Source: Alphaproteobacteria bacterium (GTDB lineage Bacteria > Pseudomonadota > Alphaproteobacteria > UBA6615). Taken from it: 64,000 nt of DNA. The position numbers and the translations under genes were made by a program. The first letter of the stretch is position 1, and every line of letters begins with the position of its first letter. Below are positions 11,847 through 56,936 of the stretch, in pieces. The stretch is from assembly GCA_049601915.1 (NCBI GenBank), contig JBMYRB010000002.1, positions 90,553-154,552 on the forward strand, in the 5' to 3' direction. The notes below the pieces were generated by a model. It was not told the origin of the DNA. It worked only from the letters and a program-made list of their open reading frames with translations, and did no database searches.

Positions 11847-11936
11847 TGGCGGAGGGAGAGAGATTCGAACTCTCGGAACGCTTACACGCTCAACAGTTTT
11901 CGAGACTGCCCCGTTCAACCACTCCGGCACCCCTCC
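11847..11936 (-). tRNA. tRNA-Ser (anticodon CGA), 90 nt, CCA encoded
   Basis: Manual fold: acceptor GGAGGGG/TCCCTCC; 3-bp D-stem with a GAGTGGTTGAA loop; anticodon stem-loop GCAGT-CTCGAAA-ACTGT; long variable arm; T-arm GAGAG-TTCGAAT-CTCTC; discriminator G. Confidence 0.85.
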
Positions 11937-35644: not shown

Positions 35645-37057
35645 CTAGATGTGAATGGTGCGCCCGCCGACGGCGAGCGCGGCTTCCTTGACCGCTTCGG
35701 CTAGGGTCGGGTGACCATGGCAGGTGCGCGCGATGTCCTCGGCCGATGCACCGAACTCCATACCCACGACGATCTCGTGAATCAGGGTACCGGCATCCGG
35801 TCCGATGATGTGGGCACCGAGAACACGATCGGTGTTGGCGTCTGCGAGGATTTTCACGAATCCGTCTGTTTCGTTGGCGGCGCGTGCCCGGCCGTTGGCG
35901 GAAAAGGGGAAAGTGCCGCTGGTGTACTCGACCCCGGCCTCCTTGAGTTGTTCTTCGGTCTTGCCGACCGCCGCGACCTCCGGCCAAGTGTAGACGATCC
36001 CCGGGATGGTGTCGTAATTCACATGTCCTGTCTCGCCGGCGATAATTTCGGCTGCCGCCACGCCTTCATCTTCGGCTTTGTGCGCCAGCATCGGGCCCGG
36101 CACGCAGTCGCCGATGGCGAATATGCCCGCCACATTGGTCTGAAAATGGGCGTCGATCTCGATGAATCCGCGGTCGTCGGTTTTGACGCCGGCACCGTTC
36201 AGGCCGAGACCGTCCGTGTAGGGCCGACGGCCGATCGCGACCAGCACCGTATCGCATTCGACAATCTCGCTCTCGCCACCCGCGGCGGGTTCGACCGAGA
36301 GCTTGATCTTGGTCTTCAGGGTTTTGGCACCCGTCACCTTGGTGCCGAGCTTGAAGGTCATGCCTTGTTTCTTGAGGGTTCGCTGGAAGGTCTTGGCGAC
36401 CTCGCCATCCATACCGGGCGTGATCCGGTCAAGGAATTCGACCACCGTTACATTGGCGCCCAGACGGGCCCAGACGGAGCCCATCTCGAGGCCGATGTAA
36501 CCGCCGCCGATAACCACCAGATGCTTGGGGACGCTCTCGAGTTCGAGTGCACCTGTCGAAGTGACGATGCGTTTTTCATCGGCGTCCACGCCGGGCAGGG
36601 GCATGGACTCGGAGCCTGTTGCGATCAGGACATACTTTGTTTTGAGGGTTTGTGGCGCGCCGTCATCCGGTGTCACCACAACTTCCTGCGCGTTTTTGAT
36701 TTCGGCAGTGCCGAACACGGAGGTCACCTTGTTCTTCTTGAACAGGAACTCGATGCCCTGGGTGTTGTCGTCCACGACCTTGGTCTTGTGCGCCATCATC
36801 GCGTCGAGGTCGAACGAAACCTTGCCAACCTTGATGCCGTGCGCCCCCAGCCCGTGCTGTGTGTGGGTGTAGTGCTCGGATGATTGCAGCAGGGCTTTCG
36901 AGGGAATGCAGCCAATGTTGAGGCAGGTGCCACCCAACGTCGCGCGTTTCTCCACGCAAGCGACATTGAGGCCGAGTTGCGCGGCGCGGATGGCGGCCAC
37001 ATAGCCGCCGGGGCCGGCACCGATTACGACCAGTTCGAAACTCTGTTCGTCAGCCAT
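35645..37057 (-). CDS. lpdA: Dihydrolipoyl dehydrogenase (E3)
   Basis: [20 protein letters not shown]...[13 protein letters not shown] redox-active disulfide motif. Confidence 0.95.
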
Positions 37058-53545: not shown

Positions 53546-53941
53546 CTAGAGCCCTCCGAGGCTGGCGTAACCAACGACCCAGCTGATGACGGTGAGCACG
53601 GTTGCGGCAACCACCACCAGCCAGGCAGAAGCGAATGCGGTACTCAGTTCGAATCCCTTGCCGGCGTCCCAGACCAGATGCCGGATTCCATTGCAGAGGT
53701 GATAGTAGAGCGCAAAGCTCCATGCGAGCAGCAGGATTCGCCCGATGACCGAGCCAATGAATTTCTGCACCACGTCAAATTCCGTGGGTCCTGCGGCGGC
53801 GGCGATCAGCCACCAGACCAAAAGCAGTGTGCCGATGGCGAGGCCGATACCCGTGATGCGATGAAGGATCGAAAGCACCGATGTGAACTGCGGGCGATAG
53901 ACCTGAAGGTGCGGCGATAGCGGTCTGTTGTCGGTCGCCAT
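53546..53941 (-). CDS. sdhC: Succinate dehydrogenase cytochrome b556 subunit
   Basis: MATDNRPLSPHLQVYRPQ... start with 3 TM helices. The ORF is open to 54154, but the upstream part is not protein-like. Confidence 0.85.
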   Translation of the reverse strand: MATDNRPLSPHLQVYRPQFTSVLSILHRITGIGLAIGTLLLVWWLIAAAAGPTEFDVVQKFIGSVIGRILLLAWSFALYYHLCNGIRHLVWDAGKGFELSTAFASAWLVVVAATVLTVISWVVGYASLGGL

Positions 53942-53966
53942 GAGGCCCCCTGACTTTGCTGCGAAG

Positions 53967-53999
53967 CCGGAACCAGGTAAATGGTTCCGGTGGTTTTCC
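53967..53999. promoter_or_regulatory. Perfect 9-bp GC-rich hairpin (CCGGAACCA-GGTAAA-TGGTTCCGG) followed by TGGTTTTCC. It lies in the sdhC 5' leader and looks like a terminator on the plus strand.
   Basis: An inverted repeat read directly from the sequence. Its function is unknown. Confidence 0.35.
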
Positions 54000-55302
54000 G
54001 TGTGCCGCGAGCCGCCAAACAGTCGTTCGTGACGGTCACGTGCGTATGTGTTTCCAGAAAGCAGATTTAGACCCCCGCCCCCCGTTTCGTCAATGACACT
54101 GCCGCGCGCAACAGCTTGGATCGACGGGCACAGCGTCCGGGTCGTGGGTGGCATGTGGAAAACCTGTGGAGGAGTTGTGATCTACCGGGTGAGTTTTGCA
54201 CAAGAATCTGGATGCCGGGGTCGATTGGACATTGCCGCCCTTGCTGTGGAGGTCGAACATGTCCGTGCACGCATTGACGTGTCGACGGGTTTTCGTCGGG
54301 TCCGATTAGCCGCTCTGCGGTTGGCGCGGACAGGTTCGGAACGGCCACCAGGGGGCGGGCCGAATCGACGGGAACCGAACGCCGGATCAACGGGGTTGCC
54401 GCAAGGTGGCACCAGGTCGGGGGGAAAGTCGGCGGATGGACATGATCCTTCGGGATCGATCGCCTCGGTAGATGTTCATTCATGTGTTCGGTCCGATACA
54501 TGGGTAACCATGCGACGGTCAGGGCACGGTCGGCAGACCAGACGGAGGTGTACTTCCTCGGAAGAACGCCGCCAGAGGTCGGCCGGTAAGGAAGGCACCG
54601 TTGCGCAATCTAGCGGTCTTTCCGGCAGCGCAAGCTCCTCGGAGCGCGCGCTCCGCCCGGATGCCAGCTTCGGCCGGCTCGGGGCGAAGGAAGGACGGCA
54701 GCGTTTCGTTATCCAGGCTCTCGCCGGCCAGGAATTCGAGACGACGGCCGGTCGGAAGCTTCGGTTCTTCGGAGCCGCGGCGACCAATCGGGCGGGTTTG
54801 CAGGACGGCGGCTGACCGGGGCTTCGATCCCCTCGGGGGCGGTATAGGACGTGTAAAAGCGGACGGTACCGGAAAAGCGAAGCGCGATGGACGACGTATC
54901 GGCCAGGGGTGCGTCCCACGCGCGGAGCGATGAGAAGCTGGATGTCGGTGTGGGTATTGGGTCGAAGCCGGTGGGGCGCAAGCCCGGCGGGTGGGACCTG
55001 AAAGGTCTGAAGTCCCGGGGGTAACCTGGGGTTGGAAGATCGAGGAAGGCGTCAGGCGTCACGGGCTCCGCGTCCATGCACCTGGCGCCTTCTTCATTTC
55101 CGCAAGCTGCGCGTCGGGCCGTGCGAGACCTATCGGGAAACGAAAAGAGCCCGGTGCTTTCGCACCAGGCCCTTTCTCAGGCGTCTTAGGCCGGGCTCCG
55201 CATCCAGGCAGATCGATATTCGACAGGTATCAATGGCGTTTCGCGTCGGTCAAACGAATTCTTGTGCTGGCGCCGCGACAAGCGCAAAACCGATACCCAG
55301 CG

Positions 55303-56181
55303 ATGCATATTCTTTCGATCCAGTCTCAAGTGGTGTTTGGGCATGTCGGCAATTCGGCCGCTACATTCCCGCTTCAGTGTCTTGGGCATGAAGTCTGGTC
55401 CGTTCCCACAGCGATCCTCTCGAATCATGCCGGCTACCCGGACGTTGGCGGTCAGGTCTTGCCGCCCGAAATCCTCTCGGATTTGCTCCGCGGGCTTGGT
55501 CATCGCGGAGTTTTCTCGAATTGCGACCTCATGCTCACTGGCTACCTGGGCAATTTGGATATTGCAGCGTTGGTCATGCAAACTGTGGGGCATGTCCGGG
55601 CGGCCAATCCGGACATGATCTATTGCTGCGACCCGGTCATGGGCGATGACGGGTCCGGAGTTTATGTGGATGCGGCGCTGCCGGATCATTTTCGGGCAAC
55701 AGCGCTACCGGTTGCCGATGTGACAACCCCCAACTTGTATGAACTTTCGCTTTTGTGCGGCCTCGAACCGGGGGGCTTGAATGCTGCGCCCGTCCGCGAA
55801 ATCGTGGAGGTGGGCCGCAAGCTTTTGGCGCATATGCGGCCGGGTGCTGTTGTCATGGTGACCAGTGCCGAATATCGAGAACTGGATCCCATGCGCGTGG
55901 CGGTCGTGGCATTTAGAGACTCGGAGGCCTGGTGCGTGGAGACTCCCCGGTTGGTCTTCGCGTCGGAACCGCATGGCGCGGGCGATCTACTTAGCGCCCT
56001 TTTTGCGACGTCCGTCGCCACCCGTTGTCCGCTCGCCGGGGCGCTGGAAGATAGCGTGGCTGCCGTCTTCGCCATTCTATCGGAGACCGCGCGGCGGGGC
56101 GGTGCAGAGCTCGAGCTGGTCGCAGCACGCGATGCGATCGCACCACCGGTGCATCATTTCGTCGCGCGATCGATCGACTGA
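55303..56181 (+). CDS. pdxY: Pyridoxal/pyridoxamine kinase
   Basis: MHILSIQSQVVFGHVGNSAATFPLQCLG matches the PdxY N-terminus. Ribokinase fold. Confidence 0.85.
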   Translation: MHILSIQSQVVFGHVGNSAATFPLQCLGHEVWSVPTAILSNHAGYPDVGGQVLPPEILSDLLRGLGHRGVFSNCDLMLTGYLGNLDIAALVMQTVGHVRAANPDMIYCCDPVMGDDGSGVYVDAALPDHFRATALPVADVTTPNLYELSLLCGLEPGGLNAAPVREIVEVGRKLLAHMRPGAVVMVTSAEYRELDPMRVAVVAFRDSEAWCVETPRLVFASEPHGAGDLLSALFATSVATRCPLAGALEDSVAAVFAILSETARRGGAELELVAARDAIAPPVHHFVARSID

Positions 56182-56279: not shown

Positions 56280-56936
56280 TTGGTCGTAACTGATTACATT
56301 CTGATCCAGGGTATTGTGTTCGGATTCTTCCTCGCACTGCCGGTGGGGCCGGTCGGCGTTCTATGCGTTCAGCGCACCCTGTCACAGGGCCGCATGCACG
56401 GCCTTATTTCCGGGCTCGGGGCCGCTTTTGGAGACGCACTTTACGGCGCGGTTGCTGCCTTCGGAATCTCGGCAGTGGAAGATTGGATTACGGGTCACCA
56501 GGGCGGACTGCGCCTTGTGGGTGGCACAGTGCTCCTGCTCCTGGCGCTGCGAACGGTTGCTCCGATGTTGCGTGCCCGCCCGGTCACCGATGGTACAAAC
56601 GAAAAAATTCAGCGGCGGATCGAAACCCATAGTCTGGTGAATGACTTCCTGTCGACATTCATGCTGGCAATTACCAATCCCATAACCTTCATTGCTTTTG
56701 CCGGCTTGCTGGCGACACTCGGCTTTACCGAGGCCGGCCGCTCCATCGGCAATGCCTCGATCCTGGTTGCGGGTGTTTTTGCCGGGTCGGCGCTGTGGTG
56801 GATCGCGCTCTCGACAACCGCGAACCTTTTCCGACCGATCGTCGACGGATCCTATCAACTCTGGATGGATCGGATCGTCGCCCTCTTGCTCGCCGGTTTC
56901 GGGATATACGCCCTGCTGACATCCTTCTTCTATTAG
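56280..56936 (+). CDS. LysE/RhtB-family amino-acid exporter
   Basis: 6-TM profile with the LysE N-terminal motif (FFLALPVGPVGVLCVQRTL). TTG start. Confidence 0.7.
   Translation: MVVTDYILIQGIVFGFFLALPVGPVGVLCVQRTLSQGRMHGLISGLGAAFGDALYGAVAAFGISAVEDWITGHQGGLRLVGGTVLLLLALRTVAPMLRARPVTDGTNEKIQRRIETHSLVNDFLSTFMLAITNPITFIAFAGLLATLGFTEAGRSIGNASILVAGVFAGSALWWIALSTTANLFRPIVDGSYQLWMDRIVALLLAGFGIYALLTSFFY

Follow-up and report, generated by a model that had tools for sequence, protein, structure and literature searches.

What occupies the 1361 nucleotides (nt) that separate sdhC from the gene for a PdxK/PdxY-type kinase (pdxY) in an alphaproteobacterium of the UBA6615 lineage? The interval in question, positions 53942-55302 of a 64,000-nt stretch of contig JBMYRB010000002.1 (assembly GCA_049601915.1, contig positions 90,553 to 154,552; hereafter the window), is bounded on the left by sdhC on the minus strand (53546-53941; Pfam Sdh_cyt, 1.9e-33) and on the right by the kinase gene on the plus strand, with its ATG at 55303 (Phos_pyr_kin, 2.6e-14). 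An initial annotation had described the interval as a gene-free, high-GC gap that could hold a structured non-coding RNA (ncRNA), a decayed gene, or an extended regulatory region for the sdh operon. We find that the gap is probably a compact non-coding locus, in which a promoter for sdhC and a cluster of DnaA-box-like sequences are followed by a structured RNA of ∼0.9 kb and by an sRNA (small RNA) of ∼85 nt. The structured-RNA option is strongly supported by conservation, compensatory changes and strand-specific folding, while the regulatory option is right only in part: a probable sdhC promoter and the DnaA-box-like cluster do lie inside the interval.

The absence of a protein-coding gene from the gap is real. 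None of its six open reading frames (ORFs) has a Pfam match at E ≤1, no reading frame is common to the homologs described below, and the AT-rich homologs offer at most 160 stop-free codons in any frame. The mean pairwise difference, tallied by position modulo 3, is flat in the gap (0.258/0.264/0.225) and periodic in both flanks (0.25/0.19/0.53 in pdxY and 0.10/0.05/0.33 in sdhC), and 151 of the 174 indel runs in the gap are not multiples of 3. Thus, the lack of a shared frame, the lack of periodicity and the predominance of non-triplet indels exclude a decayed gene, and together with the Pfam result they rule out a coding gene or pseudogene of any kind; the sequence is nevertheless under purifying selection over lineages that range from 38 to 68% GC. 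A 255-amino acid (aa) ORF rich in Arg, Gly and Pro (54048-54815, plus strand) crosses the RNA gene in the window and has no conserved counterpart in the homologs; automatic gene calling is likely to yield spurious GC-rich ORFs of this sort here, for instance this one as a hypothetical protein. The description of the gap as high in GC holds only marginally, as its local GC content of 0.60-0.67 is slightly above the ∼0.61 found across the window. More unusual than the GC content is the GC skew, which is strongly positive in the gap and reaches 0.245.

The whole interval is conserved in relatives. Homolog loci (designated here by L numbers) were gathered with an SdhC search, using one genome per species, and the sequence upstream of sdhC was compared. 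The entire 1.36 kb aligns in nine relatives with 69-95% nucleotide identity, and patches align in six more. The gap is conserved at least as well as the PdxY protein, with 71% nucleotide identity versus 60% amino acid identity in L007 and 69% versus 53% in L009. A search with an invariant 24-mer (window 55055-55078) found 36 further marine metagenome contigs and zero viral contigs among the matches; altogether, there are ∼36 sequence-distinct versions at 51 marine loci, with GC contents of 38-68%. Several of the contigs come from the Tara Oceans and Saanich Inlet data. Wherever the flanks are present, sdhC is divergent and lies 770-1300 nt upstream, and the order of landmarks is identical, such that the sdhC side is the invariant association of the RNA locus. 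On the other side, the next gene is mostly pdxY; an AT-rich group (GC 38-46%) lacks pdxY, and there a LysE-type transporter gene is next, ∼290 nt away. The element is single-copy in the window, and no match was found in viral contigs, phage or plasmid records. An RNA of a mobile element, phage or plasmid was rejected on the basis of this single copy, the constant sdhC context and the lack of matches in mobile collections.

Compensatory changes indicate that the conserved sequence is an RNA. RNAalifold analysis of nine sequences yielded 378 base pairs, of which 74 are changed on both sides in at least one sequence. An alignment of 28 sequences (A2) yielded a consensus of 273 pairs in 42 helices, which we compared with controls in which the partners were slid by 1-3 columns. 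In A2, 87.7% of cells are paired, compared to 36-47% in the slid controls; the number of pairs with double-sided changes is 153, compared to 78-93; the number of cells with such changes is 671, compared to ∼200; and the covariation score is 0.311, compared to 0.08-0.115. None of 500 shuffles equalled any of the observed values. The folding is also specific to one strand. The alifold energy is -375 on the plus strand and -281 on the minus strand, and the window sequence from 54193 to 55100 has a minimum free energy of -445 kcal/mol (z = -6.1, equalled in 0 of 20 shuffles), while its complement has one of -344 kcal/mol (z = -0.9). Of the ten cUUCGg hairpins that the plus strand of the window contains, five fall in this kilobase. 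On the basis of the covariation, the strand asymmetry and the cUUCGg cluster, a conserved structured RNA of ∼0.9 kb is very probably encoded on the plus strand at 54193-55100.

Many of the helices are short hairpins with cUUCGg or GNRA loops, and in a number of them (for example helices 17, 19, 22, 31, 35 and 37) the stems are wholly different between lineages. Helix 17, the cUUCGg hairpin GAUCC-UUCG-GGAUC at 54444-54457, has five pairs, of which three are changed on both sides, with 100% of cells paired. An internal domain at 54617-54695 is closed by helix 22 (UCUUUCC/GGAAGGA), in which double-sided changes affect all seven pairs, with pairing in 91.7% of cells, and it holds hairpins 23 and 24. 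It is followed at 54702-54743 by a hairpin made up of helices 25 and 26, which bears the invariant block GGCUCUCGCCGGCCAGGAAU. A further domain (54820-54939) is closed by helix 29 and holds helices 30-33; double-sided changes occur in 6 of 7 pairs of helix 29 and in 9 of 11 pairs of helix 31, and the hairpin at 54882-54923 has an invariant loop region, CGUAUCGGCCAGGGGU. Two hairpin modules with GNRA-type loops (GCAA and GUAA), formed by helices 34-35 and 36-37, occupy 54959-55041, with double-sided changes in all nine pairs of helix 35 and in eight of the nine of helix 37. The GACCTGAAAGGTC hairpin listed in the initial annotation was found here, at 54995-55007. The module of helices 34-35 is missing in seven lineages. 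Moreover, one locus on a complete chromosome of a metagenome-assembled genome (MAG; L013:4985-5999, OZ244931.1) is without ∼370 nt of the 5'-middle part (A2 columns ∼445-890) and retains the 5' block, the 3' half and the sRNA, which suggests that the fold is modular, with a dispensable domain.

The most conserved element of the entire locus, to which the initial annotation had not drawn attention, is a 50-nt hairpin at 55044-55093, GGAAGGCGUCAGGCGUCACGGGC...GUCCAUGCACCUGGCGCCUUCU, which is nearly invariant in 31 sequences of 38-68% GC. Helix 38, which forms it, has 99.6% of its cells paired in A2, and a U-rich tail (UUCAUUU in the window, ending at 55100) follows it in all 31 sequences. This hairpin is a probable intrinsic terminator belonging to the large RNA, and its probable 3' structure. 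The next 35-45 nt (55101-55135 in the window) are unalignable and rich in indels, and we assign them to a variable spacer between two convergent RNA genes. An insertion of ∼50-60 nt in L002, between the terminal hairpin and the sRNA terminator described below, fits a non-functional spacer.

The large RNA does not match a known family. The initial annotation had reported no hallmarks of RNase P, tmRNA, SRP or 6S RNA, and this was borne out: a cmscan search of the gap with all 4227 families of Rfam 15 returned only two noise hits at E ≤10 (17 and 16 bits, with cut-offs of 40 and 48), and ARAGORN found no tRNA or tmRNA in the gap. The families covered include riboswitches, group I and II introns, OLE, GOLLD, ROOL, HEARO, raiA, IMES and alphaproteobacterial sRNAs. 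At the Rfam gathering thresholds, the whole 64-kb window has a single hit, a tRNA at 11850-11936 on the minus strand, and no hit at E ≤1 was obtained for five diverse homolog loci. No description of the locus turned up in the literature, whether searched by topic or by exact sequence. By these comparisons, we regard the large RNA as a new family, one to which no known RNA is related.

A second predicted RNA, also beyond what had been annotated, lies on the opposite strand. Reading leftwards from the pdxY side, a probable promoter at 55226-55253 (minus strand) has a -35 element TTGACC (55253 to 55248), a 16-nt spacer and a -10 element GATACC (55231 to 55226), which is GATAAC in other lineages; both hexamers are invariant or nearly so in 32 sequences. 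The -10 element is followed by ∼12 variable nt and then by a conserved single-stranded segment, UGCCUGGAUGCGGAGCC, a variable linker and GACGCCU. This 5' part of the predicted sRNA (UGCCUGGAUGCGGAGCCCGG...GACGCCU) is the antisense of 55179-55210. A terminator hairpin (55175 to 55144) with a U tract comes next, in which 11 of 16 pairs are compensatory among the 32 sequences; the GGTGCTTTCGCACC hairpin at 55153-55166, which the initial annotation had also picked out, is the predicted terminator of this sRNA. In 29 of the 32 sequences, the minus strand has the better U tract, with 5.9 U per nine nt compared to 4.0, and the predicted fold of the sRNA consists of an open 5' half and the terminator. 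The distance from promoter to seed is fixed in all loci, while the next gene may be as near to the promoter as 50 nt (in the window) or as far as ∼290 nt (in L015). Thus, the promoter block probably belongs to the sRNA and not to pdxY. All the parts expected of the gene for a trans-acting sRNA, namely its own promoter, a single-stranded seed and a terminator with a U tract, can be recognised, and we consider it likely that a convergent sRNA gene is present at 55136-55219, read from 55219 to 55136. The 49 nt between its promoter and pdxY (55254-55302, plus strand) are moderately conserved and include a possible -35 element for pdxY, CTTGTG at 55261-55266, an assignment that is weak.

The sRNA, if made, is predicted to pair with the large RNA. 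On the plus strand, the seed region (55179-55210) partially repeats, in the same direction, the 5' arm and apex of the terminal hairpin (direct repeat D1, 55062-55080 and 55192-55210). Since the seed is the antisense of this partial copy, the sRNA is complementary to the terminal hairpin, over 19 nt with one mismatch and one G-U pair, plus GACGCCU with AGGCGUC. When the sRNA was compared by RNAduplex to the whole large RNA, the terminal hairpin was the best site in 27 of 28 lineages, at -38 to -60 kcal/mol; only 0-2 of 60 shuffles were as good in 23 of these 28 lineages. Of the variant cells in the central seed, 22 preserve the pairing with the invariant hairpin and 12 disrupt it, the former including A to G opposite U and U to C opposite G. 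Seed and promoter co-occur only with the hairpin-loop motif. We regard an interaction between the sRNA and the terminal hairpin as plausible, at a level of confidence a little below even. The leader or start of sdhC was rejected as a target of the sRNA, as duplex energies there equal those of shuffles and no site is conserved. Elsewhere in the window, a 15/17 match to the hairpin-loop and seed-target motif occurs at 36600-36616 (minus strand), inside a 470-aa ORF (35645-37057) that by eye we take to be dihydrolipoamide-dehydrogenase-like; this match is probably due to chance, being internal to coding sequence.

At the left end of the gap, a probable sigma-70 promoter of sdhCDAB (54066-54093, minus strand) consists of a -35 element TTGACG (54093 to 54088) and a -10 element TCTAAA (54071 to 54066); TTGACG-N16-TCTAAA is invariant in all 28 sequences of A2. 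It fits the sigma-70 consensus quoted for Caulobacter, TTGAC-16-(G/C)CTANA (PMC2724300), and is probably the sdhC promoter. No Fur-alpha box upstream of sdhC, such as that in Caulobacter, was found by eye. Between this promoter and the gene, 53942-54065 is the probable 5' leader of the sdhC mRNA, which is variable in A2 outside group 1 and conserved among close relatives only. It includes the perfect 9-bp hairpin that the initial annotation had placed at 53967-53990, which has 10 pairs if counted from 53966 to 53991, lies ∼25 nt before the sdhC start codon, has a terminator-like score on the plus strand and is kept in the eight closest sequences. We assign this hairpin to the sdhC leader and not to the large RNA.

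On the other side of the sdhC promoter, 59-94 nt beyond it, is a cluster of TGTG boxes (54154-54202) that are DnaA-box-like (TGTGNATAA), phased at 11 bp and invariant in 28 of 28 sequences. Three boxes are on the plus strand, TGTGGAAAA (54154-54162), TGTGGAGGA (54165-54173) and TGTGATC (54176-54182), and at a distance of 40 bp from the first there is an inverted box, TGTGCAAAA (54202 to 54194). Both this inverted box and the first of the forward boxes agree with the DnaA box TTATNCACA at 8 of 9 positions, and the 64 kb contain only eight sequences, these two included, that match it with one mismatch or fewer. Where the inverted box has changed (TTTTGCACA to TTTATGCACA), the forward boxes show no compensating change, and thus the block behaves as a DNA element; an RNA hairpin formed by the block was rejected for this same lack of compensation for changes in the 3' arm. 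The cluster probably serves as a promoter or control region for the large RNA, or for both this RNA and sdhC. A -10-like element (TCTACA, TCTATA or CCTATG) comes after the third box in several lineages, and we therefore place the start of the RNA near 54193; covarying structure begins by ∼54232, and the inferred 5' end could be anywhere from 54150 to 54230.

The box cluster is found well beyond the relatives in which the large RNA can be aligned. Among 80 sdhC loci (856 kb), 27 of the 42 perfect DnaA boxes are within 700 bp upstream of sdhC, a density of 0.485 per kb compared to 0.019 per kb elsewhere, or a 25-fold enrichment. The perfect boxes mostly form an inverted pair 40-41 bp apart, inside a phased module, and perfect boxes in this geometry were seen at 22 of the 80 loci. 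The module, which was found at L012, L015-L017, L021-L030, L035, L036, L039, L042, L051, L074 and L077-L079, lies 140-630 nt upstream of sdhC, also far outside the large-RNA clade. The literature that we searched does not describe a DnaA-box-like module upstream of sdhC. DnaA is a tentative candidate for the factor that binds the boxes; their geometry is fitted equally well by a response regulator of the OmpR/PhoB type, which binds 7-bp direct repeats at 11-bp spacing. A chromosomal origin was rejected at this site: GC skew is positive to the left and right of the site and throughout nearly all of the window, except for one slightly negative 4-kb segment at ∼28-32 kb, and cumulative GC skew has no turning point at the site.

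Clusters of DnaA-box-like sequences away from the origin have been described before, such as datA, DARS1 and DARS2 in Escherichia coli, the clusters of Bacillus subtilis, and DnaA-regulated promoters. The cluster beside sdhC resembles these in having several DnaA-box-like 9-mers within 50 bp, helical-turn phasing, one inverted box, and an intergenic, off-origin position conserved across genera. It differs in that the two best boxes in the window match at 8 of 9 positions and are not perfect, and in its position beside sdhC and a gene for a large RNA, which is without precedent in the literature searched.

The large RNA may likewise be much more widespread than the clade in which its sequence is similar. 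Searches with nhmmer and with a covariance model of the 3' domain gave weak matches in L019, L023, L024, L026, L027 and L039, all at the expected place and on the expected strand upstream of sdhC. In a Pelagibius sp. MAG (L019:4561-5600, minus strand), phased TGTG boxes accompany a related RNA of ∼1 kb with eight cUUCGg hairpins, whose terminal hairpin, GAGGCGUCGGG...CCCGGCGCCUC, precedes AUUCAUU and has a different loop; no sRNA is adjacent. The cultured Pacificispira spongiicola KN72 (L036:4762-5650, minus strand; NZ_JABBNT010000004.1, ∼151.4-152.2 kb) has the boxes and a structured region (z = -2.35 versus -0.75), with a 3' end, GGGCGUCCGG-UCCAUGCG-CCGGACGCCC followed by GUUUCAUUUCC, that forms a hairpin with a recognisable relationship to the one that ends the large RNA in the window; no sRNA is evident at this locus, which is a probable distant homolog of the large RNA. 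At 13 distant loci with the box module, the next 600 nt fold 1.10-1.38 times better in the orientation of the RNA, a ratio that is 0.99-1.18 for coding controls from the window and that is partly confounded by GC skew.

Other features of these loci were noted in passing. Clusters of cUUCGg hairpins also occur upstream of sdhC in L016, L017 and L051. A gene for a LysE/RhtB-type transporter follows pdxY and is syntenic across the clade (window 56280-56936, L015:3586-4218 and L091:3856-4494). In a close relative, L001 (1828-4189), pdxY is interrupted by an insertion of ∼2.3 kb with a 295-aa ORF, which by eye is presumably zinc-ribbon/IS1595-type transposase-like, and the RNA locus is intact.

Several observations weigh against this interpretation of the locus, or against parts of it. 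The promoters, the transcript ends and the sRNA are all inferred from sequence alone. The promoter of the large RNA is not convincing, as no -35 element is apparent and the -10 element is weak in GC-rich lineages; a scan of the window for consensus promoters yielded nothing, and no consistent match to promoters of the sigma-54, sigma-32 or extracytoplasmic function (ECF) type was found by eye for the large RNA. For the most distant groups, the MAFFT alignment has imperfections. The long-range helix 7 of A2 (54267-54278/54944-54955) competes with a covarying local hairpin, CACGC-NNNN-GCGUG, and since some long-range helices compete with well-supported local hairpins, the global arrangement of the long-range helices in the modelled fold is provisional. 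With respect to pairing of the sRNA, shuffled seeds are also strong in GC-rich sequences (means of -36 to -47 kcal/mol), and in L083 the seed has diverged and the best site is elsewhere. Moreover, the complementarity arises by construction from the direct repeat, which could be a motif used twice on the plus strand, and the terminal hairpin is invariant, which puts the pairing beyond the reach of a covariation test.

The points that concern the repeat lead to an alternative that we consider unlikely, in which there is no separate sRNA and the plus-strand RNA runs on through 55144-55175, as its true terminator or as an internal hairpin. The two copies of GGGCUCCGC(G/A)UCCA(U/G)GCA would then have the same function, for example binding one protein twice, and 55226-55253 would be a promoter or operator of pdxY or lysE. 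The copies of the motif are indeed direct repeats on the plus strand; in close relatives, RNAalifold predicted pairing of the downstream copy with 54944-54955, spanning the hairpin; and the hairpin at 55144-55175 is nearly symmetrical, with some U on the plus strand too. However, that U tract favours the minus strand in all but three of the 32 sequences, the hairpin at 55044-55093 has a U-rich tail of its own in every sequence, and the spacer between the two hairpins is unalignable and full of indels. The element TTGACC-N16-GATA(A/C)C is on the minus strand, at a fixed distance from the seed and at anything from 50 to ∼290 nt from the next gene. Finally, the seed variants A14G (7 cells) and C18U (9 cells) keep pairing to the hairpin through G-U and break the identity of the motif on the plus strand. 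It is quite improbable that the large RNA is instead a giant cis-acting leader, a riboswitch or attenuator of pdxY-lysE. It does have the orientation of pdxY and is immediately upstream of it in most loci, and terminator-like hairpins stand between RNA and gene, as in an attenuator. Nevertheless, the AT-rich lineages keep the whole element without pdxY and with the LysE-type gene ∼290 nt off, other genes follow the related RNAs in Pelagibius (L019) and Pacificispira (L036), and it is sdhC, on the other side, that is the invariant neighbour. Two terminator hairpins and a convergent promoter intervene before the downstream gene, Rfam contains no matching aptamer, and 0.9 kb far exceeds the length of known riboswitch leaders.

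The remaining alternatives dispense with a functional plus-strand RNA, and both run counter to the folding data. A function at the level of DNA only, as an sdh regulatory region, a datA- or DARS-like locus or an origin, agrees with the DNA-like behaviour of the 5' block, in which boxes are conserved individually and changes are uncompensated, and with the 25-fold enrichment of perfect DnaA boxes upstream of sdhC in the 80 loci. We judge it very improbable, as it cannot explain the 153 double-sided compensatory pairs, the tetraloop hairpins on one strand or the z-score of -6.1 on one strand only; the positive GC skew around the site speaks against an origin in particular. Most improbable of all is a product of other kinds, either a minus-strand transcript that forms a long 5' leader of sdhCDAB, initiated at 55226-55253, or a decayed protein gene. 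The promoter-like element at 55226-55253 is a good one for the minus strand, and GC-rich ORFs of up to 255 aa are present in the window's copy of the locus. Against this, the minus strand folds like its shuffles (z = -0.9) and alifold favours the plus strand, many of the invariant G-U pairs, if read on the minus strand, would be A-C mismatches, and a terminator with a strong U tract would end minus-strand transcription after ∼85 nt. For a decayed gene there is no conserved frame, periodicity or Pfam match.

In the arrangement that we favour, a convergent pair of RNA genes beside a divergent sdhC promoter, sdhCDAB would be transcribed leftwards from 54066-54093, and the phased TGTG boxes would act at the level of DNA, probably controlling the divergent transcript. 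That transcript, the large RNA, would be made rightwards from ∼54193, fold into more than 30 helices and end at ∼55100, at a hairpin that would be both terminator and 3' protective structure, while the sRNA would be made leftwards, from ∼55219 to 55136, from its own promoter to its own terminator. The large RNA would be a stable, ornate and trans-acting molecule, possibly a ribonucleoprotein scaffold or an RNA machine, and its invariant 3' hairpin may be a control point at which RNA meets RNA. Pairing of the sRNA would open this hairpin, with an effect on how the large RNA terminates or on the stability of its 3' end; an equivalent possibility is that the sRNA is titrated or sequestered by the large RNA.

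Adjacent RNAs that pair are known from antisense and sponge systems, including ColE1 RNA I/RNA II, 3'ETS-leuZ, SroC and type I toxin-antitoxin loci. As in those systems, a short RNA adjoins a longer structured RNA and would have an unstructured seed, its own terminator and complementarity to an exposed hairpin. The locus differs from them in that the two genes do not overlap, with a duplicated segment read on the opposite strand, so that the sRNA would act in trans though adjacent, and in that the target would be a 3' terminal hairpin rather than a 5' primer or leader, with no toxin ORF. A type I toxin-antitoxin system was rejected for want of a conserved ORF in the large RNA; the ORF that begins at the invariant AUG of the terminal hairpin has 37 aa in the window and 8 aa in L015, and no Shine-Dalgarno sequence was seen by eye. 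The neighbourhood also recalls the control of sdhCDAB by sRNAs, namely RyhB, Spot 42 and RybB in E. coli and NrrF in Neisseria (cited in PMC2724300). The likeness is that an sRNA gene and the sdhC operon share a regulatory neighbourhood; unlike those sRNAs, the one predicted here has no pairing with the sdhC leader beyond that of shuffles, and it has no sequence relation to them (Rfam negative).

The closest analogues of the large RNA are the large ornate bacterial ncRNAs, which have been examined by cryo-electron microscopy (PMC12286853). Like OLE, GOLLD and ROOL, it is a long ncRNA (at least 0.6 kb) with dozens of covarying helices and interspersed invariant nucleotides, and it has a fixed genomic locus and a function that is not obvious from context. 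It has no sequence or structure homology to these RNAs, its hosts are marine Alphaproteobacteria, and it is larger than OLE or ROOL. Moreover, it is syntenic with sdhC, whereas the others are found in phage or tRNA contexts or with oap genes, and it is accompanied by a predicted complementary sRNA and by DnaA-box-like boxes on its 5' side.

What the locus may mean depends on how much of this arrangement holds. To our knowledge, few bacterial ncRNAs approach 1 kb with dozens of covarying helices. OLE, GOLLD and ROOL have each opened a line of research, and structural and functional studies would gain a further target in a new class of large RNA from abundant marine alphaproteobacteria, with two leads on function in the predicted sRNA that would pair with the terminal hairpin and the DnaA-box-like module on the 5' side. 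The probable distant homolog in the cultured Pacificispira spongiicola KN72 would make experiments possible. A wider proposal, speculative and in our view rather unlikely, is that an RNA divergent from sdhCDAB and starting at a DnaA-box module is a widespread and unnoticed component of Alphaproteobacteria, which would link the state of DnaA to the control of respiration or the tricarboxylic acid cycle or to other housekeeping, and that the marine clade has gained an anti-RNA that opens the terminal hairpin. In its favour, distant versions of diverged sequence seem to occur in Pelagibius, Pacificispira spongiicola KN72 and many MAGs. If the proposal is true, these RNAs would form a new class, giant and ornate, that carries its own RNA antagonist and takes an input from the cell cycle. 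The box module could itself be an unrecognised link between DnaA, or a response regulator, and the succinate dehydrogenase operon.

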